IMG/VR virus record: IMGVR_UViG_2541047691_000017
Reading direction: 5' to 3' (one strand)
Source: a virus
Taxonomy: Duplodnaviria > Heunggongvirae > Uroviricota > Caudoviricetes
DNA: 40,851 nt
Part shown: piece by piece, positions 1,142 through 40,851 of the stretch
Position numbering within the stretch: position 1 is the first letter of the stretch
Layout: the number at the start of each line of letters is the position of its first letter
Made by a program: the position numbers and the translations under genes
Notes under the pieces: generated by a model
Databases searched by the model: none
Seen by the model: only the letters and a program-made list of their open reading frames with translations
Told to the model about the DNA's origin: nothing

Positions 1142-1289
1142 TTCATTCATAGTGCAGGGTCAAATCATTTCCACTCAATTATTTACGACAACCATAACCA
1201 ATTGAGTGATAACATTTTTCCAAATCTCAATTTTTCCCGTACCGTTTTATATACCGTCACCGGAAATCAGTACCATGAAAAATGCCATG

Positions 1290-1772
1290 CTATCTGGTCA
1301 AAGTGTCGTACTGTTTTTCGCAGACTCTTCCGGCTTCGGCTGCCCGGTCAGCATACTCTGCCAGTTGTCTGTTTCTCTCGAGAGATTTGCTGAGCACGTC
1401 GGCAAGCAAAACTCCGGTGTCTGCGGCTGACGACCCAGCGCCGACAATGGCGTTATACTGCCTGAGCTGCTCACGGATGGCAAAGAGTTGTTGCTGCAAC
1501 CGGCCAGCGCTAGCGGCAGCATCAAGAGCATCATTGCGCGCCTGGTCGATCCTCTGCTGAGCTTCACGTTCATTGGTCACTTTCTCCTGTTCGTAGTACT
1601 GACGAACTTTGTCTTCTTCGGCTTTGCTGTCTTCTTCCGCCTGAGCATACCCGGCATCGTACTGGCGACTGCCGTGTATATTCCAGGCAACCACTCCTGA
1701 TATGACCAGAACAGCAAGCACTGCCACGATAAGAAACTGTTTCCAGTATGCTTTTACGAATGCCCAGATCAT
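1290..1772 (-). CDS. Rz: Rz-like i-spanin
   Basis: 160 aa; N-terminal transmembrane helix then coiled-coil periplasmic domain; directly downstream of the endolysin with an ATGA stop/start overlap at 1769-1772. Confidence 0.7.
1298..1534 (-). CDS. Rz1: Rz1-like o-spanin embedded in Rz in another frame
   Basis: ORF lies inside the Rz gene; encodes a signal peptide with lipobox LALAGC followed by a Ser/Pro-containing short mature peptide. Start chosen at the MMLLML methionines; exact start uncertain. Confidence 0.6.
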   Translation of the reverse strand: MMLLMLPLALAGCSNNSLPSVSSSGSITPLSALGRQPQTPEFCLPTCSANLSRETDNWQSMLTGQPKPEESAKNSTTL

Positions 1773-2398
1773 ACCGCCAGCACCTTACTGGCAGTGATGT
1801 ACCGCGCTCGCCGGTCGTCGATGCCGTTCCGGCCACCATTGATAATCAGAGTTACACGTGCAATATCGCCGGTATACTTCATGCATCCTTTGCTGGCGAA
1901 GAACCACGCCGCGCTACGAGCCGCATATTCGTCCTGCGCCAGCAGTTCAGGGCTCTCCAGCAGGTCAACCTTCAGACCGTTTCCGCAATCACGATAGTTA
2001 TTCAAACCGGTAATCTGGATAAGTCCGCGCCCTCGGTAATTCCAGCCATCACCAGGGGCATTGTTCCCCATGCGTTTGCTGTATACCAGATTTGCGATCG
2101 CGCGCTGGCGCTCAAGTGGCAATGGTGGTTCACCAGCACGGCGCCCCAGTGCATTAGCCTGCCCCTGAGTGAGACGCCCAGCCCGAACGAAGTTAGCCAG
2201 TCCGCTGACACTGTAGTTGAAATTCTCCTGCAACCTGGTGAAGCCCCCAGACTCATGCCCGACTTGAGCAATAAACATTGCCTGATCTTCTGCTTTGCTG
2301 ATACCAAACTCTTTCATCGCAGAAGTTATATGCGAGAACCAGCGTGCGGCCAGTGCCTCGCTGATACCAGCAGCTCGCTGGAATTGTTTAATCTCCAT
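1769..2398 (-). CDS. Endolysin, glycoside hydrolase family 19 (chitinase-like) type
   Basis: Start placed at internal ATG (MEIKQFQ..., codon 2396-2398) rather than the upstream read-through; motifs [12 protein letters not shown] and GRGLIQITG... resemble GH19 phage endolysins (from memory); sits in the lysis cassette. Confidence 0.8.
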
Positions 2399-2696
2399 GT
2401 TTAGACCTCGATACTTTAAAAATTTGAACGACGTTACCGCGCGTTTTAATAACCGCAGCCAGCATGACAGCGTTGATAATGACCTCAGATAAATCCACAG
2501 CCATTGGCGTACGTAACCAGATTGCATAGGCGACTCGAACAGGAATACTGGCCGCAGCAACAATCAGGAAATAAGCAAGCCATCCTCCCCACCTTCGATG
2601 TTGAGAGCCGTTACGCCGGAATGTGACAACGCGAATTGCTATGCCAGTGCAAATAACTGCATTAGTGATAAGCAAAAAAAACTCATGCGTTACCAT
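2388..2696 (-). CDS. Holin-like small membrane protein (second of pair)
   Basis: 102 aa with 2-3 hydrophobic helices; immediately upstream of the endolysin; overlaps the preceding membrane-protein gene by 14 nt. Confidence 0.5.
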
Positions 2697-3087
2697 CGTC
2701 TTTTCTCCCCGGAATTAACTCGCGTGGATTATCGGAACGGTGATAGAGCCATATACCAATACGCACAGCGACAATTGCTGACACGAATGCGCCTGCAGAG
2801 AAAACAATCCCTTTTTCAAAAGAGTCCTGCGTGATGGTAGGGATCAGGCTGGCTATGCCGATAAGAATTGATGCTGCTGGTTTGTAAAAGAGAAGGCCGC
2901 AAAGAAAGCTGAGCATCGACAGGAGCACCCGGCGACGGATGGGGTACTCTACTGCAGAGGTAACAAAAATTACCGCCCCAGCCAAAGCCCCTAAAGCAAC
3001 CTCCGGAGGGACACCTGCAATAACTGCAGCAAGAGAACCAAAACTAAGCAACTGATTTAATTGCTCACTTGTTACTTGAGCAGACAT
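2683..3087 (-). CDS. Holin-like membrane protein (first of pair)
   Basis: 134 aa, several hydrophobic helices; RBS AGGAG before ATG at 3085-3087; first gene of the lysis cassette. Confidence 0.5.
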   Translation of the reverse strand: MSAQVTSEQLNQLLSFGSLAAVIAGVPPEVALGALAGAVIFVTSAVEYPIRRRVLLSMLSFLCGLLFYKPAASILIGIASLIPTITQDSFEKGIVFSAGAFVSAIVAVRIGIWLYHRSDNPRELIPGRKDDGNA

Positions 3088-3367
3088 ACTTTCTCCTGTT
3101 TACTATCTATAAGCCAGTCAATTATTGATGACTAAACCCGCATAGTAAACCATATATGAATCATTATTGTTCCATATCATATATCTCAATAAAAGTACTA
3201 ATGATTTTACAGAACGAGCCAGCAGAGTGGGGGCAGTTGTACAGGAACCATAGACTTAATTTTGTATTTAATAATGCTATGGTGTAATAAACCTGAACAT
3301 GTATTTAAAATACGTACTGATTCATGATAGAATTCAAAGATAACTTTTCACCAACCCGTTTTTGATA

Positions 3368-3394
3368 CCCGCAATATTTTGCGGGCTTTTTTTT
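3368..3394 (+). terminator. Plus-strand intrinsic terminator abutting the tailspike stop codon
   Basis: Stem CCCGCAA/TTGCGGG, loop TATT, then T8; the U-tract is on the plus strand only, so it is not a canonical terminator for the minus-strand tailspike. Confidence 0.4.
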
Positions 3395-6300
3395 AACGTT
3401 CTTCCAGAGACTGAACCCGCTCTTTTATCTTATCCATTTCTCTGCGCTGCCATGCTGCCTCGATATAGAATAAGAGATCAGGTCTGACCCCCCATCTAGA
3501 TCCTGCTGGCGTTATTTCAACGCGCTCAATGATGTCTTCTATTACCATCACTGGATTATCATCCTCATCAACAATGATGCTCCCGTCATTATCAGTCAGC
3601 GGCATTTCCCTTTGGCCAGTAATGACGTCATCATATACTGCGGGATAATCGTCATAGCAAAGAAAGGCATAGCGGCATGTTGTGCTTTCTTCTTCCATGA
3701 GTCCGTGAGAAATAAGAACATCACGAAGTTGCTGCGCGATTACACCATGATGTATCCTCGCCCCTTCTTCCCCCTTTATAGCGACAGCGTTCAGCCATTT
3801 ATAAGCGATATACCTGACGTCACCCCAGGCATCCAGCAATGCTTCGTCAGGAGAGACCGGCTCTGTCTTTAATGTTCCGTCACTGGTAACCACAGGATTG
3901 GAGCCAAGATAAACTGTCGAGAACCTGTTTCCCGGACCACCAAGAGCATTTACATTATCAAGATAAGGTTTAACATCTCCGTTCTCAAAAAGATGTTCGA
4001 GTGCGTTATATACCGCGCGACGTGGAGTACTGCTTCCGGAACCATGCAACGTTATCATTGCACCATCTGCTGAAGACGTTGTTTCACCGCCGCTAACGAT
4101 TAATCTCTGAGCGGTAACATCATCAGACGGTACTTTCTTCGCAATAATGGCGTAATTACCCTCAAGTTTGACTTCCGCGCGAACTTGTCCTGATGTACCT
4201 GCATGGACAGTCAGTGACTGGACGGCAACATCATCTGTGAAATCAACGGGTACAGGAACCGTCCTCACGCCTGACGTCGACATAAAAGTAGGAAGCGTTC
4301 TGTTAGGAGTGGCTCCGTAGACAAAATCCCTTGAAACAAATTCTTCCTGTTTAATTTTCACCCTGAAACAATACAAATCAGCCGGGTGACCATCGTGAAC
4401 ATAAGGATATTTTCTGTTGTTATCCCCTATGCTCCATGGGTTTAGAAAGTCTTCCCCACCGAAAATGTAGTACAGCCAGTTGTCTTTGATACAAACTGAA
4501 CCAACACCAACCGCAGAGTTAACTATTCCGCCCTGATAAATCTGATCAGTAACATTAACCCACTCTACATTATCCAGACTCCACTCATTGACGTTAACTC
4601 TGGTCATAAATGTTCTTGGATAATTTCCTGCATAACGGTTATCAGGTTCTCCTCCTTCCCACTCACCAAATGCGCGCTCACTGCCAAAAATAATCAGCTC
4701 ATCGCCAACTTTGGCAAAAGGAAGGTTTGAGTGATGAACATTATTTGGGAAGCGAAGAGAATTCCATGATGTACCTAAATCAGAGCTTCTGTGCAATGAA
4801 CTACCGGGTTGAGTACTTAATGTCCCCCTGGTCGTCAGATACAGAATGCCATCATAATATTTTACACATGGCTCAGATGCATTCGCCTCATATTCTGCAG
4901 GTATGCGTCTGCGAACAAAGCTACCAGGAGAACCGAAAGCATCAGAGAAATAGAGTATCCCAAGCTCGCGTGGACCAATATCACCATTATGGTAGCCAAC
5001 AGCAAAACTGTTATCGCTAATCGTCGCAAAACTGTGAATCTCAGTAACAGGAGTGCTTCCGTCAACAAAAGAAGGAATAGTTCCAAGACTGGTTTTTCTC
5101 CATGGTGACGAGTGAAATGATGTACCAAAACTCCAGTATCTACCCTCGTTATTCTGATCCACATCCTGGGTATTTTGCGTCGTAACTGTAAAAGTATTTT
5201 TATCAATAACAGTAGTCACCGTCATATTCCCGGTAACACCTGTAACACCAGAGTTTGAGAAGTTGACAAAATCACCAGCAAATAATCCGTGATCAGTAAT
5301 GCGAATATAAGCGACTTGCTGATTTGCTGCTTTCGTTATACCACCATAAACGCGAAGGCTGCGACTCATTGGGCGATCCCACAACTCTGCAACCTGCAGT
5401 TTATTTCCGCTCACGGTCCGCGTCTCAATTACAGCAAAAAGGCGATTTCTGACAACCCCCATACTCATGCAGTGATAGTTAACTGTGGGATAGTTTTCAT
5501 GTAAATCTGTAAGCCATTCCGGCGTTGTCCAGGTCTTCCCGTCATCTCCTGAGCGAACCCATGCAACATGGAGGTTATTTACACCATGGCGGTCTCCAGC
5601 CATAAAAGGCGCATAGATGACATTGTCATATACAAACGTTTTATCCTGCGTCCAGGCGTTGTACCACGGTGTATCTGTAATTTTAAATAACTCTCCCTGG
5701 ATAAAATCTTCAGAAGCATAAAAAAGAGGCTGGCCCGGTATTCTCTCAAATAAAAAACGAGCATTTTTAAATCGACTGACATCCGGAAGAGTTGATACTT
5801 TAAAAGTAAGCCCTAATCCGTCAATTTTATAACCTGGAGATGAGGCTTCAAGGCACGCGCTTATTGCAGTGGAATCGTCATTTATACCATCACCAACAGC
5901 TCCAAAATCTTTGGGGCTAATAGCATCACGCATTTTATCCTGGAACGTTCGGTACACAGCCCCAGAACCATACTGAATAAACCAACCAAAACCACCAACA
6001 ACCCCGGAGATTGCAGCATCGACATAATTACGCATTGAGCGATTATTTACAGCGTCCTGCTCAAATGATGGATCTGCAAGGTTAGAAATTTTGTTTTGCT
6101 TTGCATCGTAATATTTTGCAAGCAAAGATGGTTTCATCAATGCACGTCTGAACCACCCAAAACATTGCTGGATCAGCATCGTCAGGTAGTCAAAGGCATC
6201 TTCATGCACTTCGGGGAAAAATTTTCCCTGATTGCGAAGGTCTGTCTCCTGCACTACATCAAGCACACGATCTATCGTAATTCGCCATCCAGTAGCAAGC

Positions 6301-6512
6301 GGAGACGGAAGAACCACAGAACCGCCACTATAAGTGCCCGCCCCAGTTACCGTATAACCGGTATCCAGAACCAATTCTGTTACGTTTCCGTTCAGGTCAG
6401 ACACCTGAACAACCAGGTCTGATTTTCTGAAAACTCGAAAAGTATACGGAAACGATGTCGTAACGCCGTTACCGGTGTATTCGTTGTGGTCAACTTCGGT
6501 TGAGACCGTCAT
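3393..6512 (-). CDS. Tailspike/tail fiber: T7 gp17-like N-terminal adaptor, central domain with two Asp-box motifs, C-terminal intramolecular-chaperone (peptidase S74-like) domain
   Basis: 1039 aa. N-terminus (NEYTGNGVTTSFPYTFRVF...VVQV...LVLDTGYTV) fits the T7-type tail fiber adaptor pattern. Asp boxes SGDDGKTW (5529..5552) and SSDLGTSW (4764..4787) checked against the DNA. C-terminal roughly 160 aa resemble the autocleaving chaperone of endosialidase-type tailspikes, candidate cleavage near VVTS/DGTLK. All from memory. Confidence 0.85.
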   Translation of the reverse strand: MTVSTEVDHNEYTGNGVTTSFPYTFRVFRKSDLVVQVSDLNGNVTELVLDTGYTVTGAGTYSGGSVVLPSPLATGWRITIDRVLDVVQETDLRNQGKFFPEVHEDAFDYLTMLIQQCFGWFRRALMKPSLLAKYYDAKQNKISNLADPSFEQDAVNNRSMRNYVDAAISGVVGGFGWFIQYGSGAVYRTFQDKMRDAISPKDFGAVGDGINDDSTAISACLEASSPGYKIDGLGLTFKVSTLPDVSRFKNARFLFERIPGQPLFYASEDFIQGELFKITDTPWYNAWTQDKTFVYDNVIYAPFMAGDRHGVNNLHVAWVRSGDDGKTWTTPEWLTDLHENYPTVNYHCMSMGVVRNRLFAVIETRTVSGNKLQVAELWDRPMSRSLRVYGGITKAANQQVAYIRITDHGLFAGDFVNFSNSGVTGVTGNMTVTTVIDKNTFTVTTQNTQDVDQNNEGRYWSFGTSFHSSPWRKTSLGTIPSFVDGSTPVTEIHSFATISDNSFAVGYHNGDIGPRELGILYFSDAFGSPGSFVRRRIPAEYEANASEPCVKYYDGILYLTTRGTLSTQPGSSLHRSSDLGTSWNSLRFPNNVHHSNLPFAKVGDELIIFGSERAFGEWEGGEPDNRYAGNYPRTFMTRVNVNEWSLDNVEWVNVTDQIYQGGIVNSAVGVGSVCIKDNWLYYIFGGEDFLNPWSIGDNNRKYPYVHDGHPADLYCFRVKIKQEEFVSRDFVYGATPNRTLPTFMSTSGVRTVPVPVDFTDDVAVQSLTVHAGTSGQVRAEVKLEGNYAIIAKKVPSDDVTAQRLIVSGGETTSSADGAMITLHGSGSSTPRRAVYNALEHLFENGDVKPYLDNVNALGGPGNRFSTVYLGSNPVVTSDGTLKTEPVSPDEALLDAWGDVRYIAYKWLNAVAIKGEEGARIHHGVIAQQLRDVLISHGLMEEESTTCRYAFLCYDDYPAVYDDVITGQREMPLTDNDGSIIVDEDDNPVMVIEDIIERVEITPAGSRWGVRPDLLFYIEAAWQRREMDKIKERVQSLEER

Positions 6513-6616
6513 GTTAAATCTCCAGATAGTCGCAGCACCCGTTGCGCCGCATATCTGGTTATTCTATTACCTGGAAAACCACATATGGATAGAAAGGCTG
6601 TAAATACGAATAGATA

Positions 6617-6631
6617 TTACCTTTCAGGTAA
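6617..6631. promoter_or_regulatory. Operator-like palindrome TTACC-TTTCA-GGTAA
   Basis: Exact TTACC-N5-GGTAA; upstream of the LexA box and the 6708 gene. Confidence 0.6.
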
Positions 6632-6668
6632 TTTGCAAAACGTGCTGGATAGCAAACAAATTATTTGC

Positions 6669-6688
6669 TACTGTATAAATATACAGTT
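6669..6688. promoter_or_regulatory. LexA box (SOS box)
   Basis: TACTGTATAAATATACAGTT matches the CTGT-N8-ACAG consensus (TACTGTATATATATACAGTA) at 18 of 20 positions; lies 20 nt upstream of ATG 6708. Confidence 0.75.
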
Positions 6689-6707
6689 ATTGCATGGAGA
6701 AGATAAG

Positions 6708-6965
6708 ATGCAGCAGTATCACTATCCACTGGAAGACGGATTTACCGAAAGGATTCACACGCCGGGAGGCGTCAGGTCACTGGTGGAGGGATCGCACTTG
6801 ATGAAATTACTCCGGGATCTCGATAAGGATGGATTTAATGTCGATGGCCCACTTGCCGAACTGACTGCACTGATTAACTACGTCACCAGCTCACAGATGT
6901 CTATGCAGGATCTGCAAACACATCTCGACTATTGTGCCGAACAATTACGAAAACAAACCAGATAA
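6708..6965 (+). CDS. Small antirepressor-like protein, standalone paralog of the antirepressor C-terminal domain
   Basis: 85 aa from ATG 6708 (MQQYHYP...). Aligns by eye with the C-terminus of the 7283..7933 product (IHTPGGV..SHLMKLL..DG.NVDGPLAELT..Y...DLQTH vs IHSPSGV..SLLMNLL..DGHDVSGAAAELT..Y...DIQTH). The longer listed ORF start at 6585 would place the LexA box inside the coding region. Confidence 0.6.
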   Translation: MQQYHYPLEDGFTERIHTPGGVRSLVEGSHLMKLLRDLDKDGFNVDGPLAELTALINYVTSSQMSMQDLQTHLDYCAEQLRKQTR

Positions 6966-6996
6966 GATTTGAAATTACCAAGTGGAGTGCTTATGT

Positions 6997-7011
6997 TTAC
7001 CTTTGAGGTAA
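6997..7011. promoter_or_regulatory. Operator-like palindrome TTACC-TTTGA-GGTAA
   Basis: Exact TTACC-N5-GGTAA between the 6708 gene and the antirepressor gene. Confidence 0.55.
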
Positions 7012-7101
7012 ATTTACATCGCACTCCTCTTGTGCCATAGTAATCGGGCACTGGCAAAATCCAGTGCCGGGATTGGTCTCCCGGATTACTAAGTGGCGCA
7101 T

Positions 7102-7124
7102 ACCACGCCAGACGTGGTTTTTTT
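7102..7124 (+). terminator. Weak intrinsic terminator
   Basis: Stem ACCACG/CGTGGT around a 5-nt loop followed by T7; downstream of the 6708..6965 gene. Confidence 0.3.
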
Positions 7125-7282
7125 ATGCGTATAGCACAGTCATGCCAGAATTATGGTGGGCTGAATGGGGGTCCGAAAGGACGCCGGTACCACTTAGGCC
7201 GGTAAGACCAACTCCGTTCAGTTCACCACCATCTGATTGGTCTCAGCGGTGGTGATGTAATTCGCTAAGTGGAGACGCCATA

Positions 7283-7933
7283 ATGAACGCTCAACTCATC
7301 CCCGTATTCAACGGCACTATATCCAACGAAACCGCTCTTCTCGTTAATGCCCGTGATTTACACACTTTCCTCGATGTGGGTAAGCGATTTGCTTCGTGGA
7401 TTGTCGAACGAATTTCTGAATATGGTTTCGTTGAAAATCAAGACTTTATGATTATTTCCCAAGTTCGGGAAAAAATAGGCAGAGGCCGTCCTGCAAAAGA
7501 CTACCACCTCACCCTCGATACAGCCAAAGAGCTGGCGATGGTCGAGCGTAACGAAAAAGGTCGTCAGGTACGACGCTACTTCATTGAATGCGAGAAACGT
7601 TTAAGACAACAAGAAACAAAAGTGGAGAAGGTCTTGTCAGGCTTCATGCCCGCCATTATGGAGGCGATCAAGCTGGAAGACAAAAAAGAATACAGTGCCC
7701 CACTGAAGCCCGGCTACCGTAGCCTGATTCATTCGCCGTCTGGTGTTCTCGGCCTGACGGAGAACTCACTGCTGATGAATCTGCTGAACCAGTTACAGGA
7801 CGACGGGCACGACGTATCGGGCGCGGCGGCGGAGCTGACCACCATGTTCTGCTACATCGTCGGTGTGAGCAAATGCCTGCGTGATATCCAGACCCACGCG
7901 GAGTACATCAACGACAAGGCAGGGTTCTTCTGA
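7283..7933 (+). CDS. Phage antirepressor (AntA/AntB-type N-terminal domain plus C-terminal domain)
   Basis: 216 aa; N-terminus (ARDLHTFLDVGKRFASWIVERISEYGFVENQDFMI) fits the AntA/AntB antirepressor domain pattern from memory; RBS GGAG before ATG. Confidence 0.7.
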   Translation: MNAQLIPVFNGTISNETALLVNARDLHTFLDVGKRFASWIVERISEYGFVENQDFMIISQVREKIGRGRPAKDYHLTLDTAKELAMVERNEKGRQVRRYFIECEKRLRQQETKVEKVLSGFMPAIMEAIKLEDKKEYSAPLKPGYRSLIHSPSGVLGLTENSLLMNLLNQLQDDGHDVSGAAAELTTMFCYIVGVSKCLRDIQTHAEYINDKAGFF

Positions 7934-7999
7934 CGGGCGGCGGCACAGGGATGTGCTTCTGACATAATCATTTGCGGTGTGATGTAGATTCACGTAAGA

Positions 8000-8014
8000 T
8001 TACCTTAAAGGTAA
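8000..8014. promoter_or_regulatory. Operator-like palindrome TTACC-TTAAA-GGTAA upstream of the 8041 cassette
   Basis: Exact TTACC-N5-GGTAA, 26 nt upstream of ATG 8041 and before its AGGAGG RBS. Confidence 0.55.
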
Positions 8015-8040
8015 ACCATGGGTTTACATGAGGAGGAGAT

Positions 8041-8250
8041 ATGGGATTTTGGTTCGCTCGTACAAAAACGAGGGATAATGCACCCAGCCCTCAGGCAAAA
8101 AATGCAGAAGTTCCGGCGTCAGCGCAGGTTAACAAGCGTGGTGGAGTATATATCTCATCACAGCAAATTTCTGAGCTTCCTGAGGTTAAGGAGATGCGTC
8201 GTCTCGCTGCTGCAATTGTTAAACAGGATCTTGCCACTGTAAGGAAATAG
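8041..8250 (+). CDS. Small hydrophilic protein of unknown function, first gene of accessory cassette
   Basis: 69 aa; strong RBS (AGGAGG) before ATG 8041; stop TAG overlaps the GTG start of the next gene (TAGTG). Confidence 0.55.
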   Translation: MGFWFARTKTRDNAPSPQAKNAEVPASAQVNKRGGVYISSQQISELPEVKEMRRLAAAIVKQDLATVRK

Positions 8251-9116
8251 TGTTGTTAGCTCTTCTAATTATCCCCATTCTGGTTAGTGGTTATATTATG
8301 ATAACCGCTAACCAGTATCATTATTTCCGTTTATACCGACATGAAGGCCAGCTTCTTTATATGAAAGTAGCTGCATTAGGTACATATTGCCTTGTTGCAT
8401 CAGTAATAATTGCAGCCGCTATAAAATATAAATGGCCTGATTTTCACCTAGTTCACGATATGGTGGAAACTTTTAATGTAACATCAAAACCAGAAACAGA
8501 TAGAATTTACATGTGGCTGCTTCTTCTCTCAGCCACATCCATTTGCTTCTCTTTGTGTTATGTGTCTGTTGTGTGGGTGAAAGATTTTCTTCTTGGTTGT
8601 TTTTATAAACGTGATATTTACGAGCAAAAAACAGAGGCAATGAAGGCCAGAGTACTGCGAAAAACTTACTCGCAAGGTTCTTTAGACTTACTATTGCTTG
8701 ATGCTATTGAATCGGATCCTAAACGACCAATGTTGATTACTTTATCATCAAACAAAGTGTATGTTGGAATAATAAATGGTTCTGGTGAACCAACGGAAAA
8801 TCAGGGTCCGCATCAGCACATATCTTTTGTTCCTTTAATGTCAGGATACAGGAACAAAGAAAACTTATCTGTCACATTCACTAATGCTTATCCAGGAGAA
8901 ATACAGGTCAAGCGGACTGCAGCAATAAGAGGAATTAGCAGAAAGAAAGTGCTAGGACTTGAGATCATGGTGTCTATTGACGAAATAAGTTATATATCAT
9001 GGTTTGATTTTGAAGTATATAAAGCAACAAATAACAAAGTAGAATCCAGGGGGCACGTTATTCGTGTTACCAAAAATGGAAGAAATATATATCAAAGAAA
9101 TAGCAAAAAAGAATAG
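8250..9116 (+). CDS. Membrane-anchored protein of unknown function (three predicted N-terminal TM helices, about 170-aa soluble C-terminal domain)
   Basis: 288 aa; GTG start with AAGGA RBS 5-6 nt upstream, translationally coupled to 8041..8250; markedly AT-rich relative to neighbours; followed by a strong terminator. Confidence 0.6.
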   Translation: MLLALLIIPILVSGYIMITANQYHYFRLYRHEGQLLYMKVAALGTYCLVASVIIAAAIKYKWPDFHLVHDMVETFNVTSKPETDRIYMWLLLLSATSICFSLCYVSVVWVKDFLLGCFYKRDIYEQKTEAMKARVLRKTYSQGSLDLLLLDAIESDPKRPMLITLSSNKVYVGIINGSGEPTENQGPHQHISFVPLMSGYRNKENLSVTFTNAYPGEIQVKRTAAIRGISRKKVLGLEIMVSIDEISYISWFDFEVYKATNNKVESRGHVIRVTKNGRNIYQRNSKKE

Positions 9117-9136
9117 CCCGCGCTGCGGGCTTTTTT
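9116..9136 (+). terminator. Strong rho-independent terminator after the accessory cassette
   Basis: Stem GCCCGC/GCGGGC with 3-nt loop, then T6, immediately after stop codon 9114-9116. Confidence 0.75.
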
Positions 9137-9208
9137 GTGGACGAAACAAAAGTCAGTGCTACACTCATTGACGCCACATTGAGGTGGCTTATAGATGGAA
9201 ATGTCACA

Positions 9209-9370: not shown

Positions 9371-9393
9371 AAACAAGGCCGCGAAAGCGGCCT

Positions 9394-9405
9394 GTGACAT
9401 GTCAC
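9394..9405. repeat. Palindrome GTGACATGTCAC, copy 1 of 3
   Basis: Perfect 12-bp palindrome; its TCA is the stop codon (reverse strand TGA) of the 9402..9698 gene; preceded by hairpin GGCCGC-GAAA-GCGGCC. Confidence 0.7.
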
Positions 9406-34080: not shown

Positions 34081-34311
34081 TCATGAGTAGAAGAAGTATG
34101 CCAGTTCTGCTTTTGAGCGCAGCCATTGTCTTGTTTTACAGGCTTTAAAAAGCCCATTCATCAATACTTTACCTGGCATTTTGCGCTTACCTGTTAAGTG
34201 AGTCTGGATATAGTGACTCGTCGTTCCGGCTTCCTGTGCGAAGGCTTCACGCTCATCCGGAGTAAGTGCAAGCCAGTGCTTTTTGAAATCGAAATGTCCG
34301 TTATCGCTCAT
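34081..34311 (-). CDS. Cro-like HTH regulator
   Basis: 76 aa; HTH-like segment (REAFAQEAGTTSHYIQTHLTGKRKMP); divergent from the repressor gene across an operator-containing intergenic region; followed by terminator and replication genes. Confidence 0.6.
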   Translation of the reverse strand: MSDNGHFDFKKHWLALTPDEREAFAQEAGTTSHYIQTHLTGKRKMPGKVLMNGLFKACKTRQWLRSKAELAYFFYS

Positions 34312-34347
34312 AGCTATTGCCTGATATTTATTTCAGATAATAAATAT

Positions 34348-34362
34348 TCACCCATAAGGTAA
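34348..34362. promoter_or_regulatory. Operator site 1 in repressor/cro intergenic region (TCACC-CATAA-GGTAA)
   Basis: 9 of 10 match to TTACC-N5-GGTAA; forms a larger inverted repeat with the 34379 site (CACCCATAAGGTAAC ... GTTACCTATGGGGTG). Confidence 0.55.
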
Positions 34363-34378
34363 CAAAAATCAAGGATAG

Positions 34379-34393
34379 TTACCTATGGGGTGC
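34379..34393. promoter_or_regulatory. Operator site 2 (TTACC-TATGG-GGTGC)
   Basis: Left half exact, right half degenerate; mirror partner of the 34348 site. Confidence 0.5.
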
Positions 34394-34395
34394 AT

Positions 34396-34410
34396 TTACC
34401 TGTTGGGTAA
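34396..34410. promoter_or_regulatory. Operator site 3 (TTACC-TGTTG-GGTAA)
   Basis: Exact TTACC-N5-GGTAA, 56 nt upstream of the repressor start codon. Confidence 0.6.
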
Positions 34411-34465
34411 TATTGCTTTAAATTGAATCATCTACTGATTCATATACGAGGCGATTTTCCAGAAA

Positions 34466-35050
34466 ATGAAAAGTATCCAGGACGTCCGCAGGCAAAATCT
34501 CAACGACTTGATCGACCGTGAATTCAATGGTGTTCAGACGCGGATGGCAGAAAAACTTGGAACTCAGGCAAATCTGGTAAACCGCTGGGCTCTTGGCAAG
34601 AAGGTTATCGGCGACCAGGTTGCGCGAAAAATTGAAGCTGCCGCCAATAAACCCCGTAACTGGCTTGATATCGATCGCTCGCTTTCTCAGGAAGGTTTTC
34701 AGCCTGTCGGCCCAAGCGACATTGGCCAGCTGGCGGCTCACAACCTGGAACGCTGGATGAGCGAAAGCCGCGACCTTTCAACACAGGGAAAACTTCACCG
34801 CGCATCCGGCGTCGCCCAGGTGACAATCAGCCGCCTGTTAAACAATGAGGTCAGCGTTTCCATTTCCACCCTGGAGAATGTTGCATCCGCATTCGGGCGT
34901 CACGGCTATGAATTACTGATTCACCCGCACGACCCTGCGACCATCAACTATGACCGCTCGCGCTACGCATTGTTACCCGAAACCGAGAAAGCAAAGATCG
35001 AAAGTTACATTGAATTTGTCATCAACCAGAACGAAAAAAACAAACAATAA
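34466..35050 (+). CDS. Prophage repressor candidate: tandem-HTH (two XRE-type HTH domains) protein without an autocleavage domain
   Basis: 194 aa; HTH-like segments TRMAEKLGTQANLVNRWALGKK and ASGVAQVTISRLLNNEVSVSISTL; no Ala-Gly / Ser-Lys peptidase S24 module seen; divergent from Cro-like gene. Confidence 0.6.
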   Translation: MKSIQDVRRQNLNDLIDREFNGVQTRMAEKLGTQANLVNRWALGKKVIGDQVARKIEAAANKPRNWLDIDRSLSQEGFQPVGPSDIGQLAAHNLERWMSESRDLSTQGKLHRASGVAQVTISRLLNNEVSVSISTLENVASAFGRHGYELLIHPHDPATINYDRSRYALLPETEKAKIESYIEFVINQNEKNKQ

Positions 35051-35358: not shown

Positions 35359-35658
35359 ATGAACGTTAATCAGCAGAAAAATCTTCAAAAAATCATGCTG
35401 GCATTCGACAAGGACTACCGCCTGTCAGAACAGCTATATGACCGACAAGTTGAACTGATCGAGAGCATCCGGCTTCATCAACTAGCCTCAACTTTCGACG
35501 CTGTAACAGGTAAAGGCGTTCGCCAGGAAGTACTGGAGGCCGCTAAAGACAGTCCAGAGTTCGAAGAACTGATGGATTCCTACCGGCGCGAGGCAATGGC
35601 AATTATAGCGCGCTGGGATCTGGCGGATCAGCTTGATGGGCAGAGGGACGCGGCATGA
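35359..35658 (+). CDS. Hypothetical early protein
   Basis: Start ATG 35359 (MNVNQQKNLQK...), GGAGG RBS; ATGA overlap with the exonuclease gene. Confidence 0.45.
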   Translation: MNVNQQKNLQKIMLAFDKDYRLSEQLYDRQVELIESIRLHQLASTFDAVTGKGVRQEVLEAAKDSPEFEELMDSYRREAMAIIARWDLADQLDGQRDAA

Positions 35659-36554
35659 TGCGGAACGCTGGAATCATGGATAGAACAAAATACATCGGAG
35701 GAAGCGATGTTGCAGGGATTCTTGGAGTTAGCCCATGGCGCACCCCGCTTGAGGTTTATCTGGATAAGGTCCAGCCACGTGTCAAACCAGTAGACCCAAG
35801 CAAGCAGAAAGTTTTCACGCGTGGCCAGCGTATGGAGCCATACGTAATAGACCTGCTTTCTGAGGAAACAGGGATGGAAATCGTTCATCGCGGAAACCGC
35901 TATATCCACCGTGATTACGATTTTATTGCAGCTGAGATCGATGCAGAAGCAGCGTCAGGCGAGAACATTGAGATCAAAACAGTTAGTCCGTTCAAAGCCA
36001 AAGAATGGGGAGAAATCCAGACAGATGCAATTCCTGTGCATTACACGGCCCAGGCCATGCACGGGTTGATGGTTACAAACAAACAGGTATGCGTTTTCGG
36101 TGTGCTTATCGGTGGCGACGACTTCCGAATCTATCGGGTTGAGCGTGATGAAGAAACTATCCAGGCGATCTTAGAAAAAGAAATCGCTTTCTGGGACCGA
36201 GTGAAAAATCTTAACCCGCCGGAAGCTACCAGCGTAAGCGATGTATCGCTGATGTTTGAGAAAGATGCCGGGACAAGTATCGAGGCTGACGGAAAGGCAC
36301 TCGCACTATTCAACGATCTACGAGACATGAAGTCACGCAGAAAATCACTGGAAGAAGAAATAGCTATATCAGAAGAGAAGCTGAAGATGTACATGCAAGA
36401 GCACTCAGTCCTGACCCTGGACGGAAAGCCGCTCTGCACATGGAAATCTCAGATCAGCAACAGATTCGACCAGAAGCTATTCCAGTCAGTACACCCTGAG
36501 TTATTCGAAAAATTCAAAACAACAACGACACAACGCGTCTTCAGAATGAAGTAA
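35655..36554 (+). CDS. YqaJ/lambda-Exo-type recombination exonuclease
   Basis: 299 aa; N-terminal motif GGSDVAGILGVSPWRTPLEVYLDK typical of YqaJ-like viral recombinase exonucleases; immediately upstream of RecT. Confidence 0.75.
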   Translation: MMRNAGIMDRTKYIGGSDVAGILGVSPWRTPLEVYLDKVQPRVKPVDPSKQKVFTRGQRMEPYVIDLLSEETGMEIVHRGNRYIHRDYDFIAAEIDAEAASGENIEIKTVSPFKAKEWGEIQTDAIPVHYTAQAMHGLMVTNKQVCVFGVLIGGDDFRIYRVERDEETIQAILEKEIAFWDRVKNLNPPEATSVSDVSLMFEKDAGTSIEADGKALALFNDLRDMKSRRKSLEEEIAISEEKLKMYMQEHSVLTLDGKPLCTWKSQISNRFDQKLFQSVHPELFEKFKTTTTQRVFRMK

Positions 36555-36563
36555 GGAGAAAAA

Positions 36564-37586
36564 ATGTCTATCAATGCACTTAAGGCAGCGGCTACCGGTA
36601 ACCAAGTTGCACATCATAATGAGAAACCAACAACTCTGGCCGGACTTCTGGCAGACCCAAAAATTAAAGCTCAGATGGCTTTGGCACTTCCAAAGCACAT
36701 GACAGCAGACCGTCTGGCGCGCATAGCAACCACAGAGATCAGAAAGGTTCCAAAACTTGCATCATGCGACCAAGCCAGCTTCCTGGGGGCAATTATGCAA
36801 TGTGCCCAATTGGGTCTTGAACCAGGCGGAGCTCTTGGACACGCTTACCTGATACCGTTCGACAAACGCCAGAAAGTAAATGGAAGATGGGAAACCGTAT
36901 CTACAGAAGCACAGCTTATTATCGGCTATCGCGGAATGATTGACCTTGCCCGCCGCTCTGGGCAGATCCTGAGTATCTCGGCTCGTACCGTACATACAAA
37001 CGACAAATTCAGCTACTCATACGGCCTGGAAGAAACGCTCGAGCATTTACCTTGCGAAACAGGTGACCGCGGAGAATTAACGCACGTTTACGCCGTTGCA
37101 CGACTGAAAGATGGCGGAGTCCAATTTGAAGTTATGAGCCGGGCAGACGTTGAGAAAGTTCGTGCACTGAGCAAAGCCGGTAGCAGTGGCCCATGGGTTG
37201 ATCACTTCGATGAGATGGCTAAAAAAACAGTAATTCGCCGACTGTTCAAATATCTTCCTGTTTCTATTGAAATGCAGAAGGCTGTTGTTATGGATGAGCG
37301 CGCTGAAGCTGGACTTAGCCAAGATAACGCAGCTGTTATCACTGGTGAATATTCCGTAGTTGACGATGAGCGTCAACACCTGTCGCCAATTTCAGATTCA
37401 GAACGAGAAGAAGCTCGAGAATATATCATCGCGATACTTAATAGCCTGGATCCATCTGCTGAAGATGCAAAAACGATGTTCAAGCGCGCTGAAAATGAAA
37501 TTAACACCATGGCTGAAAAGCTCGGTGATGAATATCACCAAAAATTCATGATGACGCTTAACGATATGCGTCCAGAATTCGAGTAA
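36564..37586 (+). CDS. recT: RecT-family single-strand annealing recombinase
   Basis: 340 aa; long stretches match recalled RecT (HMTAERxxRIATTEIRKVP, QLGLEPGxALGHAYLxPF, QLIIGYRGMIDLARRSGQI, HVYAVARLKDGG.QFEVM, GPWV.H..EMAKKT.IRRLFKYLPVSIE). Confidence 0.85.
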   Translation: MSINALKAAATGNQVAHHNEKPTTLAGLLADPKIKAQMALALPKHMTADRLARIATTEIRKVPKLASCDQASFLGAIMQCAQLGLEPGGALGHAYLIPFDKRQKVNGRWETVSTEAQLIIGYRGMIDLARRSGQILSISARTVHTNDKFSYSYGLEETLEHLPCETGDRGELTHVYAVARLKDGGVQFEVMSRADVEKVRALSKAGSSGPWVDHFDEMAKKTVIRRLFKYLPVSIEMQKAVVMDERAEAGLSQDNAAVITGEYSVVDDERQHLSPISDSEREEAREYIIAILNSLDPSAEDAKTMFKRAENEINTMAEKLGDEYHQKFMMTLNDMRPEFE

Positions 37587-37635: not shown

Positions 37636-37884
37636 ATGAAAGGTGCATTAGGTAAGAAGGAACTCCTGGCGGTGGTGCCACTGTCATGGAGCACTATCGA
37701 CCGTATGGAGCGCGCAGGTGAATTTCCTAAACGCTGGTATATCACTGACAAACGCTGCGCATGGAACCGTGACGAAGTTGAGCGTTGGCTTGATGAACGT
37801 CAGGCAGCAAGCCCGGCAGAGTTCCAGGGTAAAAAACCTCCTGTTCAGCAACGTGTATATCGTCCCGTGAGCAACGCTGCATGA
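37636..37884 (+). CDS. AlpA/Xis-family small DNA-binding protein (excisionase-like)
   Basis: 82 aa; pattern LSWSTIDRMERAGEFPKR...WNRDEVERWL fits AlpA-type regulators commonly paired with P4-type integrases. Confidence 0.55.
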   Translation: MKGALGKKELLAVVPLSWSTIDRMERAGEFPKRWYITDKRCAWNRDEVERWLDERQAASPAEFQGKKPPVQQRVYRPVSNAA

Positions 37885-37993: not shown

Positions 37994-38293
37994 GTGAGAA
38001 AGTTAAGCCGACTTGAAAAATATCACATGAATAAGGTTTCAATGCGTAGTCCGTCAAAGATTGTCGCCGTTACTCCTGCGGCGATAGAGATCGAAAAACG
38101 CGCGATTGAAAGAGAAAAAAAAGGGCAGTTCCGCATTGCCGCTCACCTTTGGCTTCAGTGTATGGATGTTGCTTCTGGTGATGTTGAGCGAGCAAGGATT
38201 GCGGTTCGCAGGGACCAATGTATCACAAAAGGTAACGGCCTTCGCCGTGGCGACTATAGCGGCATAGGATGTTGTGGGGTGGTTTATGACTAA
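37994..38293 (+). CDS. Small regulator-like protein, possibly PerC-family
   Basis: GTG start at 37994 with GAGGG RBS (alternative ATG 38027); segment KKGQFRIAAHLWLQCMDVA...RARIAVRRDQC loosely recalls PerC/Pch-type activators. Weak. Confidence 0.35.
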   Translation: MRKLSRLEKYHMNKVSMRSPSKIVAVTPAAIEIEKRAIEREKKGQFRIAAHLWLQCMDVASGDVERARIAVRRDQCITKGNGLRRGDYSGIGCCGVVYD

Positions 38294-38936
38294 GAAATAC
38301 ACACTAATCTATGCAGATCCACCCTGGGTATACCGGGACAAAGCCGCAGATGGTAATCGCGGTGCCGGTTTTAAATATCCGGTTATGAGTGTGCTTGATA
38401 TCTGCCGCCTTCCTGTGTGGGATTTGGCCGATGAAAACTGTCTGTTGGCCATGTGGTGGGTGCCAACACAACCACTCGAAGCACTAAAAGTTGTTGAAGC
38501 CTGGGGATTCCGTCTGATGACCATGAAGGGCTTCACGTGGATAAAATGTGGTAGTCGACAACAAGATAAACTGGTTATGGGTATGGGTCACATGACTCGC
38601 GCCAATAGTGAAGATTGCCTGTTTGCAGTAAAGGGAAAACTACCTCCGCGCATTAATGCAGGGATCGTTCAGTCATTTACCGCACCGCGGCTTGAGCATT
38701 CAAGAAAACCAGATGTCGTTCGTGAAAAACTTGTGCAATTGTTAGGCGATGTTTCTCGCATTGAACTGTTCGCCCGCCAGTCGTCTCATGGCTTCGATGT
38801 TTGGGGTAATCAGTGCGAAGACCCGGCAGTGCAACTACACCCTGGATACGCGTTGGCTATTGGCGGATTAACAAATGCATTCAGCAATGCTCCGCTGTCA
38901 CCAACAGACAACCAGGGGCGGGAGCGTTCAGCATGA
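38286..38936 (+). CDS. MT-A70-family N6-adenine DNA methyltransferase (orphan)
   Basis: Start at ATG 38286 ([14 protein letters not shown]...); catalytic DPPW motif near the N-terminus; no adjacent restriction gene; ATGA overlap with the phosphatase gene. Confidence 0.75.
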
Positions 38937-39592
38937 ACCTATATCAACGCATCAATGGCGCTGACTGGTGCAATATCTTCGTCGTCGGCGATCTGCATGG
39001 GTGCTACACGCTGCTGATGAACGAACTCGACAAAGTTTCATTCGACCCGGCGCGCGATTTGCTTATTTCCGTTGGTGACCTTGTTGACCGCGGCGCTGAA
39101 AACGTCGAATGCCTGGATTTGATTACTATGCCGTGGTTCCGAGCTGTTCGTGGCAACCATGAGCAGATGATGCTGGATGCACTGGTCAACGGCGGAAGTT
39201 TCGGACATTGGATGTCAAACGGCGGTGGATGGTGGCGCCAACTTGATTCTGAGCAGGATGTGCAACTCAAATACCTTCTGCCAAAGGTTACCAACCTCCC
39301 GATGATTATCGAACTGGTTACCGGCAATAAGAAGGTCGTCATCTGCCACGCAGACTACCCCCACAACGAATACGCATTCGATAAGCCAGTACCGGAAGAA
39401 ATGGTGATATGGAATCGTGAGCGGGTTAGCGACGCGCAGGACGGTATTGTCTCGGAGATAACCGGTGCCGATTTGTTCATCTTCGGTCATACGCCAGCAC
39501 ATCACCCACTAGTGTATGCAAACCAGATGTACATCGACACCGGCGCAGTGTTCTGCGGAAATCTGACGCTTACCAAAGTCCAGGAAGGATAG
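38933..39592 (+). CDS. Ser/Thr protein phosphatase (lambda PPase / metallophosphoesterase family)
   Basis: Start ATG 38933 (MNLYQRING...); motifs VVGDLHG, GDLVDRG, GNHE characteristic of lambda-type phosphoprotein phosphatases. Confidence 0.8.
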
Positions 39593-39594
39593 AA

Positions 39595-40851
39595 TTATTT
39601 ATTACTGTCTTCCATCCACTTCTCAAACTTCGACGGGGAGAACGGAATCAGATCCGTATGCTCCCCGTTAATCCAGGAATCAATCATATCGGCCCACTGC
39701 TGCAACATGTAGGCGCGCTGTCTGGCGTATTCCGCTTTGTTATATACGGCGCGCACACCTTTCTGCTCATGTGCCAGAGCCTTTTCAATCCAGTCTGAAG
39801 GATAACCAGCCTCATGCAACAACGTACTGGCTGTACGGCGCATATCATGTACAGTGAAGTCCTGAATATACTCACCATCTTCATTTATTATTTTCACCGT
39901 TCTGTCGATCAGAGAGTTCAGTGCGGCATTAGATAATGGCTTCCGGAAATTGTAACGACCAGGAACCAGATATTCACTTCCACCAGCGCACATCTGCAAC
40001 CCAACCAATATATCCTGTGCCTGTTTTGGCAGGTAAATAACGTGCGCCCGGCTTCCCTTCATGCGGTCTGAAGGAATTGTCCATGTCCATTTTTTAAAAT
40101 CTATTTCGTCCCACGTTGCATTGGTGAATTCGCCTTTACGAACCATAGTGATAAGCACCAGTTTTAAAGCCATTTTCATAGTGCCCATAGCACCAATGGC
40201 ATCCAGCGTGCGGAAGAAAAGACCAATTTCTTCTGGTGTCAGCGTTCGCTCTCGTGGTTTAAATATGGCGATAGACGAAGGCTTAATATCAGCCGCAGGA
40301 TTAAACAAACCATGACCGCGGTCATTGGCGTGACGGTATACGCTGCTGATGATCTCCCTGGCCTGCACTGCTGTTGCCCGGCCACCGCGTTCGACAATCC
40401 GGTCACACAAATCACGAACCATCGATGTGGTAATTTCAGCCATCATTTTGTTGCCAAGAACCGGAAGTATGTCACGGTCGATCACCGCCTGCTTCATTGC
40501 GCGGGTACTGTCAGCCAGGATGACGTGTTTCATATAACTGTCGGTATGTACCGCAAACGTCTCGGCACCACGAATCTTTTTGATACCGTCACGTTTAGCC
40601 GCAGCCGGCGACTGGCCTGCTTTAAGCAGCTTCTTTGCAGCAATCAGTTCTTCCCGCGCTTCTGCCAGGCTGATACCGTCACGCCCATACTGCCCGATTA
40701 CCAGTGTTTCGCGGCGACCGTTGATACGGTAGTCATAGCGAAACGAGACCGTACCTGACGTAAGCACAGCTACATACAGCCCGTCACGATCGGAGACCTT
40801 GTACAGTTTGTCCTGCGGCTTGAGGTTTTTTAATTTTGTATCGGTAAGCAC
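39595..40851 (-). CDS. int: Tyrosine recombinase/integrase, P4-type; N-terminus at the window edge (may be slightly truncated or start with GTG)
   Basis: 418 aa; N-terminal arm-binding-type region (KLKNLKPQDKLYKVSDRDGLYVAV...FRYDYR) and C-terminal catalytic residues (R...HDMRRTASTLL...AVYNKAEY); convergent with the early operon. Confidence 0.85.
   Translation of the reverse strand: MLTDTKLKNLKPQDKLYKVSDRDGLYVAVLTSGTVSFRYDYRINGRRETLVIGQYGRDGISLAEAREELIAAKKLLKAGQSPAAAKRDGIKKIRGAETFAVHTDSYMKHVILADSTRAMKQAVIDRDILPVLGNKMMAEITTSMVRDLCDRIVERGGRATAVQAREIISSVYRHANDRGHGLFNPAADIKPSSIAIFKPRERTLTPEEIGLFFRTLDAIGAMGTMKMALKLVLITMVRKGEFTNATWDEIDFKKWTWTIPSDRMKGSRAHVIYLPKQAQDILVGLQMCAGGSEYLVPGRYNFRKPLSNAALNSLIDRTVKIINEDGEYIQDFTVHDMRRTASTLLHEAGYPSDWIEKALAHEQKGVRAVYNKAEYARQRAYMLQQWADMIDSWINGEHTDLIPFSPSKFEKWMEDSNK

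Follow-up and report, generated by a model that had tools for sequence, protein, structure and literature searches.

Identity and insertion site of the prophage

The analysis of the window, a stretch of 40,851 nucleotides (nt) catalogued as IMG/VR virus record IMGVR_UViG_2541047691_000017, reveals one apparently intact Uetakevirus prophage of the epsilon15/phiV10 type at 1163-40851, with a guaA attB core and a P4-type integrase, in an Escherichia coli of extraintestinal pathogenic (ExPEC)/K1 type, a reading to which we assign a probability of about 0.93. The prophage is ~39.7 kb long and is inserted between yfgI and guaA in an ExPEC-type chromosome. The original prediction, made from the letters of the sequence, had described this region as a mosaic in which a T7-like tail is combined with lambdoid-style early control, and all the gene classes that it listed were found where it had placed them, with the gene content confirmed by Pfam, PHROG and PDB searches. 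This mosaic is already known as the published Uetakevirus genome plan (the phiV10, epsilon15 and ZX5 papers; Hardies 2016) and is no new design; homology of the tail proteins and of the internal virion proteins (IVPs) of the epsilon15 group to those of T7 was described by Hardies 2016 (PMC4819975), and the K1 endosialidase variant in the ZX5 study (PMC9782041). The value of the present analysis is that the prophage is labelled as a K1-capsule-targeting temperate Uetakevirus, which bears on K1 phage therapy, endosialidase tools and prophage typing, and that a plausible LexA-Ant induction circuit and an uncharacterised cassette, a candidate for phage exclusion, are flagged.

The left end of the element was compared with host chromosomes and with phage genomes. 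Host genes yfgH and yfgI occupy window 1-1071, a megablast of window 1-3400 gives 99.9% identity to ExPEC chromosomes such as those of APEC O18 and IHE3034, and local BLAST against the complete phiV10, phiv142-3 and ZX5 genomes returns similarity that begins exactly at window 1163. At this position lies the attL core (1163-1179, AATCATTTCCACTCAAT), which differs by one mismatch from the published core attgagtgggaatgatt, the 17-bp attP/attB core that phiV10, epsilon15 and ZX5 share at the guaA 3' end and that was shown experimentally (PMC9782041). The start given earlier, 1145, lies 18 bp off the boundary set by the attL core and the BLAST start. The mismatch is a single G-to-A change relative to the canonical core, and both copies in IHE3034 are perfect.

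The guaA side of the insertion was read in IHE3034 only, while in the window the attL core adjoins the yfgI side. In the equivalent IHE3034 prophage two perfect core copies, the one such pair, flank the element. The guaA stop is overlapped by the second of them, which sits 191-207 nt beyond where the integrase begins, a position that for the present prophage falls just off the window. Among the 5426 complete E. coli genomes, 477 have this same passage from yfgI into the lysis cassette; as a discovery the prophage carries little weight, with such elements present at the guaA site in ~9% of these genomes. Window 6500-9900 had no end-to-end match among the complete E. coli genomes searched, the best coverage being 88%.

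These boundaries bear on the possibility that two neighbouring elements make up the region, namely a T7-like structural remnant lying beside a lambdoid prophage. Such an arrangement would be in keeping with the early accessory genes, which unlike the structural genes have 92-98% nucleotide patches in hundreds of lambdoid and Shiga toxin (Stx) phages, and with a terminase and capsid lineage that differs from that of the tail (PMC4819975). However, a single integrase is found across the whole element, one att core pair surrounds the IHE3034 equivalent, the size of ~39.7 kb corresponds to one capsid-load of a Uetakevirus, and the independently isolated or induced free phages phiV10, phiv142-3, ZX5 and HEMP4 (39.1-39.9 kb) are collinear with the entire region. 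On these grounds the objection of two adjacent elements fails, a composite is very improbable, and the claim of a single prophage is upheld.

Relatives and genome comparison

The assignment to Uetakevirus is further supported by whole-genome BLAST, a check that had been proposed earlier and that returns 97-98% identity to temperate, short-tailed phages of this genus. By megablast, the structural half matches phiv142-3 (97.6% identity, 83% coverage), HEMP4 (97.2%, 82%), phiV10 (97.3%, 76%) and ZX5 (99.1%, 64%), and the early half matches PAS61, phiv142-3, HEMP4 and ZX5 at 97-98% over 63-79%, so that chance does not account for the pattern. PAS61 is also collinear with the prophage. When phiv142-3 and ZX5 are aligned with the prophage at no less than 90%, between 31,040 and 31,756 of its 39,689 nt are covered; identity there is 97-98%, and the similarity amounts to ~77%. 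The genus rule of the International Committee on Taxonomy of Viruses asks for a genome-wide nucleotide similarity to members above 70%, a value that the ~77% found here exceeds. Since the same figure is below 95%, the prophage is, as judged from nucleotide comparison, a mosaic variant, distinct at the species level from the nearest phages. The gene order is also that of the genus, being collinear and including the GP7 capsid, gp10 staple, Bbp16-like cement and terminal lysis cassette, and the integration site agrees, with the attL core (one mismatch) lying beside yfgI. A short-tailed (podovirus) particle has been reported for ZX5 (PMC9782041).

ZX5 (MW722083) and phiv142-3 (MN187550) are 97-99% identical in nucleotides to the window prophage over ~78-80% of its length and share its gene order, its attP core, its guaA site and, at ≥90% nucleotide identity, its repressor region; ZX5 additionally has a 1039-aa endosialidase tailspike and a K1 host. 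Differences from these phages are local. The antirepressor allele is unlike that of ZX5, the phiv142-3 tail fibre (709 aa) differs in its distal part from the window tailspike, the ea/nin set at ~29.6-31.3 kb is unlike that of either phage, and three segments are absent from phiV10, IHE3034, phiv142-3 and ZX5 alike: a cassette at 8016-9105, an epsilon15-type YqaJ/RecT module at 35659-37582 and a Metallophos gene at 38939-39611.

Comparison with the type members phiV10 and epsilon15 reveals matching terminase, portal, capsid, adaptor, nozzle, IVP, variable region, tailspike, lysis, att/int, recombination, immunity and replication blocks, together with a P4-type integrase. The Salmonella phage epsilon15 and the Enterobacter phage Tyrion give patchy matches only, at 76-84% nucleotide identity. 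The tailspikes of phiV10 and epsilon15 are O-antigen-specific, whereas that of the window is an endosialidase by its sequence; and while oac in phiV10, and an O-antigen polymerase with an inhibitor in epsilon15, follow the tailspike, no conversion gene is present there in the window.

Portal, tail tube and ejection proteins

The genes for the portal, adaptor, nozzle, gp13- and gp14-like proteins, large IVPs and fibre stand in the order of T7 genes 8 and 11-17. Both the portal and the gp14-like protein belong to T7 Pfam families, and the fibre shares its N-terminal fold with T7. The T7-like virion module of the original prediction consequently stands for the portal, tail and core, on the evidence of Pfam, solved homologues and fold, and does not stand for the capsid and terminase. 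T7 proteins were themselves run as controls for these family assignments. The portal (23973-25652, minus strand, as are all genes of this section) matches Head-tail_con PF12236 at 2.7e-187, the family into which the T7 gp8 control also falls (2.8e-113).

The 202-aa tail adaptor (20167-20775), which occupies the tubular tail A position and is assigned to phrog_394 (tail protein), matches the Carin-1 'connector' 8ck1_E at 3.9e-26 and the LME-1 adaptor 9efk_T at 3e-5. The 823-aa tail nozzle (17696-20167), the homologue of tubular tail B, matches the Carin-1 'Tail Nozzle' 8ck1_A at 1.8e-217 and LME-1 9efk_M at 6.5e-16, and a profile search reached 9efk at 4e-53 and the nozzle 23sh_T at 1e-6. Both proteins are thus homologous to components of the solved T7-like tails of Carin-1 (8CK1) and the Legionella phage LME-1 (9EFK), in agreement with the tubular A/B-like genes that had been proposed. 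The LME-1 tail, with 12 portal, 12 adaptor and 6 nozzle subunits and 6x3 fibres, closely resembles that of T7 and is nearest to that of Carin-1 (PMC12407071). The nozzle-family profile, built from 30 sequences that were gathered by a library-wide HMMER search of 18,272 representatives, aligns weakly, with an hhalign E of 1.3e-4 and a probability of 54%, to residues 350-466 in the central domain of T7 gp12. This segment falls within the region 354-556 that is called conserved between epsilon15 gp12 and T7 gp12, with a strong hidden Markov model match, by Hardies 2016 (PMC4819975).

Several internal virion proteins had also been claimed, and they were recovered. The 154-aa gp13-like protein (17232-17696) is assigned to phrog_308 (internal virion protein, 3e-62) and is sub-threshold against Pfam Phage_T7_Gp13 (E 0.088), and the 181-aa core/ejection protein of the T7 gp14 family (16687-17232) passes the cutoff of Pfam T7_gp14 (PF24072) with 31.2 bits against 27. 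Three large ejection proteins follow, namely a gp15-like protein of 837/862 aa (14174-16687/16762), a gp16-like protein of 600 aa (12375-14177) and a gp17-like protein of 824 aa (9895-12369), a trio covered by PHROGs 684, 1145 and 992. The first of these carries a muralytic domain: residues 274-423 of the 862-aa form match PDB 9vvp_L Gp29 (4e-38) and the endolysin 7q47 (3e-17), and T7 gp16 has an analogue of it in its lytic transglycosylase. PDB sequence searches with the 600-aa and 824-aa proteins were empty, no direct sequence link of the large ejection proteins to T7 gp15/gp16 was found, with position and sizes fitting, and NCBIfam returned no matches for ten structural proteins. In contrast to T7, IVP-C and IVP-D are split in the window phage and have diverged beyond direct detection; in epsilon15, gp17 was assigned as IVP-D, and gp15/16 were named candidates for IVP-C, by Hardies 2016 (PMC4819975). 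The original prediction had left room for structure-based searches to place the tubular and internal proteins outside the T7 type, and the structure-linked searches made here did not place them there.

By homology, the T7-gp8-family portal would carry a dodecameric adaptor and a hexameric nozzle, and the gp14-family protein together with the three large internal proteins would be ejected to form a trans-envelope channel. IHE3034 carries larger and different ejection genes, encoding a 1129-aa DUF919 protein and a 915-aa protein (locus 11963-18099, against window 9396-16880), and because of these different genes the ejection-protein block appears as a swappable module within the prophage group.

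Head and packaging genes

The head gene block (20772-25652, minus strand, Pfam) departs from T7 in its capsid genes. It comprises the gp10-type staple (20772-21101; Gp10-like, 8e-52), a 114-aa open reading frame (ORF), the Bbp16 cement (21492-21929; Bbp16, 7.5e-49), the GP7-family major capsid protein (21981-22973; GP7, PF20911, 2e-149), a protease/scaffold (22982-23683), a Bbp19-like protein (23680-23976; Phage_Bbp19) and the portal. The capsid protein belongs to PF20911, in contrast to the T7 capsid in PF21703, and is not T7-type, nor are the staple and cement proteins. The terminases are likewise not T7-type, the large subunit (27042-28517, minus strand; Terminase_2, 1.4e-29) being without a T7-type domain and the small subunit lying at 28514-29188 on the same strand, both in agreement with the phiV10 p01/p02 annotation. 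The epsilon15 capsid and terminase were placed with those of siphoviruses by Hardies 2016 (PMC4819975). The window phage would owe its terminase, as well as its GP7-fold capsid including the gp10 staple and the Bbp16 cement, to a different, non-T7 lineage.

The phage further differs from T7 in being temperate, in lacking a phage RNA or DNA polymerase, and in its scaffold/protease family. Because no family match to a phage RNA polymerase was found among the ORFs scanned, with no large ORF left unaccounted for, the phage is, on its gene content, not an autographivirus (Autographiviridae). A phage-borne tRNA-Arg(UCU) was detected by ARAGORN at 26301-26377 on the plus strand and is annotated in phiv142-3 and IHE3034 also; it sits between the portal and terminase genes. 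An 83-aa ORF (26307-26558, minus strand), annotated as phiV10 p04, overlaps this tRNA on the opposite strand and is probably not a gene.

Tailspike and predicted capsule specificity

The 1039-aa tailspike (3393-6512, minus strand) comprises a particle-binding part (aa 1-204), an endosialidase part (aa 205-876) and an S74 chaperone (aa 877-1039). Five Pfam domains, End_N_terminal, End_beta_propel, End_beta_barrel, End_tail_spike and Peptidase_S74, all score far above their cutoffs and make up the full endoNF domain set, and the K1F endoNF structure 1V0E (PDB 1v0e) aligns over 672 residues with E=0. Conservation extends to the motifs SEPC, TRGT and GSERA, which we take, numbering included, to hold the catalytic residues E581, R596 and R647. 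This sequence agreement identifies the tailspike as an endosialidase of K1F type, which would target the K1 polysialic-acid capsule. It resembles K1F endoNF in its domain set and C-terminal chaperone and differs from it in an N-terminus of epsilon15/Carin-1 type.

The tailspike is the same length in ZX5, to which the window is ≥90% identical in nucleotides over 1163-7256, the tailspike included. The host of ZX5 is O87:H52:K1, and its authors describe a 'T7-like N-terminus + endosialidase + chaperone' arrangement (PMC9782041). No O-antigen-modifying gene follows the tailspike in the window.

The T7-type tail fiber adaptor of the original prediction corresponds to the tailspike N-terminus, for which sequence and model were compared. 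By sequence it matches Carin-1 Dpo31 (1e-35) and is sub-threshold against Phage_T7_tail PF03906 (15.8 bits against 25.2, E 0.012). An AlphaFold2 (AF2) model of aa 1-204 contains a beta-sandwich at aa 8-87 with a predicted local distance difference test (pLDDT) score of ~90, and Foldseek against the PDB places T7-like fibre or tailspike N-termini at ranks 1-19 and 21-25, including 7boz, 7ey9 and 8dsp, at a probability of 1.00. The predicted fold superposes on the N-terminus of T7 gp17 (7ey7_a, root-mean-square deviation 1.9 A over 83 columns), and other fibres matched are those of Carin-1, PhiM1, LME-1, Kp7/Kp9, P-SCSP1u, HRP29 and E1004. The modelled fold is thus in line with the proposed adaptor. 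Many tailspikes of enterobacterial prophages share this N-terminal module and combine it with distal domains of other kinds (PF12708, PF27114, PF18668) and with other specificities. In the assembled particle, six trimeric tailspikes would dock through this gp17-like beta-sandwich, and the distal K1F-type endosialidase would cut the polysialic-acid K1 capsule.

The K1 prophage CUS-3 also carries an endosialidase tailspike, and the window could on this account be read as a P22-like K1 prophage (Lederbergvirus, CUS-3-type), the more so as its Ant region lies in the position of P22 immI. Nevertheless, the portal belongs to PF12236, the T7 gp8 family, and the capsid to the epsilon15 GP7 family; the nozzle and adaptor have their homologues in Carin-1 and LME-1; at its N-terminus the tailspike is of epsilon15/Carin-1/T7 type and bears no P22 head-binding domain; and both the integration at guaA and the nucleotide identity are those of Uetakevirus genomes. 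On these family assignments we regard a P22-like prophage as next to impossible.

Antirepressor operon, immunity and predicted induction

The ejection genes and the tailspike are separated by a plus-strand insert (6585-9370), which carries the antirepressor operon (6709-7933, plus strand; Pfam and PHROG assignments). The first gene of this operon encodes an 85-aa phiV10p24-like protein (6709-6966), and an AntA-domain antirepressor (7283-7933, plus strand) is recognised by Pfam AntA at 7e-28 and by phrog_377 (anti-repressor Ant) at 3e-65. The placement of an antirepressor region as in P22, between ejection-protein genes and tailspike, was thereby confirmed. In comparison with P22 immI, the operon of the window lies on the strand opposite the late genes, and no Arc/Mnt-type regulators were detected, the small ORFs beside ant giving no Pfam match to ribbon-helix-helix proteins or otherwise; a predicted LexA box is present instead. 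This LexA-box-like palindrome (TACTGTATAAATATACAGTT, 6668-6687, plus strand) is near-consensus, lies ~20 nt upstream of the operon's first gene, and is conserved in IHE3034, phiv142-3 and ZX5, with 3 changes in phiV10. Two side observations concern this operon. The profile phrog_450 matches residues 42-126 of its first ORF (6585-6965) as well as the antirepressor's C-terminal part (residues 133-214), so the operon contains this domain twice, and the ant region of IHE3034 carries a YafO toxin gene.

The immunity region (34081-35050, both strands) contains a Pfam HTH_3 match together with promoter-like and terminator-like sites. Of the cro/repressor pair that had been proposed, the repressor (34466-35050, plus strand) stands by its helix-turn-helix (HTH) domains, while the 76-aa cro gene (34081-34311, minus strand) is assigned by position only and has no family match. 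A cI-type system combines an S24 autocleavage domain with Cro; here the repressor has HTH domains alone, with no peptidase S24 domain by Pfam, and the protein in the cro position has no family. The window is ≥90% identical in nucleotides to phiV10, phiv142-3 and ZX5 across the repressor region. The repressors of ZX5, phiV10 and phiv142-3 are reported to have the same sequence. In ZX5 the repressor blocks the lytic genes experimentally, overexpressing the antirepressor tips the balance towards lysis, and mitomycin C induces the lysogen to yield free short-tailed phage; LexA is not mentioned in that paper (PMC9782041).

Taken together, the LexA-box-like site before the ant operon and a repressor without S24 point to a LexA-Ant induction route. 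The HTH repressor, having no autocleavage domain, would silence the divergent early promoters, and the LexA-box-controlled operon would supply Ant on SOS; induction would then most likely run from LexA cleavage through Ant expression to repressor inactivation. LexA-controlled antirepressors operate in the Gifsy phages and as Tum in phage 186, and the window resembles these systems, by analogy, in its predicted LexA box before the operon and its repressor without a cleavage domain.

Replication, recombination and integration genes

The replication module (32117-33714, minus strand, Pfam) consists of a lambda-P-family protein (32117-32917; Phage_lambda_P PF06992, 1.5e-56) and an initiator with HTH_36 and DnaT domains (32899-33714; DnaT 1e-15), both on the minus strand. 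The O/P-like replication genes that had been proposed thus hold for P, and not for O, as the initiator shows no lambda O homology. A repeat search revealed five iteron-like direct repeats of ~19 nt (TCCCGTTTTTGGGATCATT, 33312-33459) inside the initiator gene, at spacings of 24, 24, 36 and 45 and each with internal dyad symmetry, in the segment whose product is the linker joining the HTH_36 domain to the DnaT domain. Such a placement corresponds to the ori-in-O layout of lambda, the repeats being putative iterons; replication would then use an initiator with iterons in its own gene and a helicase loader of lambda P type.

The prophage resembles lambda in this P-family loader, in the iteron-like repeats inside the initiator gene, in having int next to att, and in that its repressor is transcribed together with the recombination operon running leftward. 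It differs from lambda in that the initiator is not O, the repressor is without S24, YqaJ/RecT takes the place of Exo/Bet, and no N or Q homologue was recognised. The exonuclease/RecT pair of the original prediction is borne out by Pfam, with the YqaJ exonuclease at 35655-36554 (5e-23) and RecT at 36564-37586 (4e-57), followed by an AlpA-family protein at 37636-37884 (Phage_AlpA), all on the plus strand. The YqaJ/RecT allele (35659-37582) is of epsilon15 type, with 83.8% nucleotide identity to epsilon15 and 99.7% to Phi05_1387 B. Other E. coli relatives carry phiV10-type RecE/RecT, and the module swap is clean, with sharp boundaries.

The P4-type tyrosine integrase (39595-40851, minus strand) was likewise confirmed, with its arm (Arm-DNA-bind_3, PF13356, 3.7e-20), central (Phage_int_M, PF22022, 5e-12) and catalytic (Phage_integrase, PF00589, 1.4e-19) domains all present; the phiV10 integrase is annotated as cd00801 INT_P4. 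A plus-strand block at 37994-39592 starts with a PerC-like protein and contains an MT-A70 methyltransferase (38274-38936) and a Metallophos phosphoesterase within 38813-39592 (Pfam Metallophos 1.8e-15; phrog_246, NinI-like Ser/Thr phosphatase). The segment of this calcineurin-like phosphoesterase (38939-39611) adjoins the integrase and replaces the DUF1382 gene of phiV10, ZX5 and IHE3034.

The accessory 'nin/ea-like' genes (29229-31999, minus strand) include a phrog_536 regulator and ASCH, DUF4752, Ead/Ea22+DUF551, DUF7739 and DUF1064 proteins. Window 29200-32100 contains patches of 92-98% nucleotide identity common to 531 phage records, mostly of Stx-converting, lambdoid or P22-like phages, and these patches directly attest an exchange with the lambdoid gene pool. 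Through its Ea22/nin-type accessory genes the prophage is linked at the nucleotide level to lambdoid and Stx phages, by exchange with both. PADLOC returned nothing meaningful for the accessory ORFs, with two weak coiled-coil-like matches in the 200-aa ORF at 30988-31590.

Intactness of the prophage

The prophage looks intact because its essential ORFs are all equal in length to their phiV10 and ZX5 counterparts. It could alternatively be a Uetakevirus prophage that is defective, a cryptic remnant without excision or particles, as the mismatch in the attL core and the position of attR would allow; related prophages do carry frameshifts, for example in the MT-A70 gene and an ead/Ea22 fragment of IHE3034. 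Against this, all ORFs for structure, lysis, replication, the integrase and MT-A70 have their full length when set against phiV10 and ZX5, no insertion sequence (IS) elements or truncations were seen in the prophage, and the closely related ZX5 is inducible. We therefore consider a defective element unlikely, although less so than the composite or P22-like readings, and retain the apparently intact prophage.

Some observations weigh against the overall reading of an intact, T7-tailed Uetakevirus. The attL core is one mismatch off the canonical core, and attR lies beyond the window edge, at which (40851) the integrase gene ends. The adaptor and nozzle miss the Pfam T7 models PF17212 (Tube) and PF25675 (Phage_nozzle), even at E<=10, and their probable kinship with T7 is drawn from homologues of solved structure, from a profile match that is weak, and from published work. 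An AF2 model of the nozzle, made from a 16-sequence alignment at 82-91% identity, had a mean pLDDT of 38.9 and was unusable, and it was not fold-searched; the nozzle homologues came from a word-indexed search which, among the matches listed, gave only relatives at ≥82% identity. Finally, the LexA/Ant circuit, the function of the iterons and the enzyme activity are deduced from sequence.

Lysis genes and a two-gene membrane-protein cassette

The lysis cassette lies at the distal end of the late operon, after the tailspike, as had been claimed, and runs from 3087 to 1290 on the minus strand through two genes of the holin family, one for a GH19 endolysin, and Rz/Rz1. The two holin-family membrane proteins are encoded at 2388-2696 and 2683-3087 (Phage_holin_3_7, 5e-27, and Phage_holin_8, 1.4e-11), the endolysin at 1769-2398 (Pfam Glyco_hydro_19; RefSeq annotation in IHE3034) and the Rz-like spanin at 1290-1772 (DUF2514, 1.2e-42), with an Rz1-like ORF (1298-1573) embedded in its gene, the last two in accordance with the phiV10 p30/p30a annotation. 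The lysis genes stand after the tailspike, at the prophage end.

The sole unfamiliar item in the prophage is a plus-strand cassette at 8041-9116, which comprises a 69-aa ORF (8041-8250) with a strong Shine-Dalgarno sequence and a conserved C-terminal motif, and a gene for a 288-aa protein (8250-9116, GTG start) with 3 predicted transmembrane segments. The TAG stop of the first overlaps the GTG start of the second, as in a translationally coupled pair, and a terminator that is bidirectional (9115-9131, both strands) follows the cassette. The segment has 39% GC, its nucleotides (8016-9105) have no megablast match in the phage nucleotide collection, and its proteins have no Pfam, PADLOC or NCBIfam match, the only assignment being to phrog_3630 'unknown'. 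A 74-aa ORF (8018-8242) was considered as the partner of the 288-aa gene and rejected, since the ORF at 8041-8250, in an overlapping frame, bears the conserved motif.

The family is small, with 28 clusters, all in Enterobacterales. Both genes move together between accessory slots of unrelated prophages: a Providencia epsilon15-like prophage has them in the same slot, a Citrobacter lambdoid prophage in an integrase-adjacent one, and the small-ORF motif …YI.S.EI.ELPEV.EM.R.A..IV is kept in both copies. The cassette behaves as a typical prophage moron, and we tentatively put it forward as a possible candidate for an undescribed superinfection-exclusion or anti-phage module; in P22 the equivalent slot is occupied by sieA.

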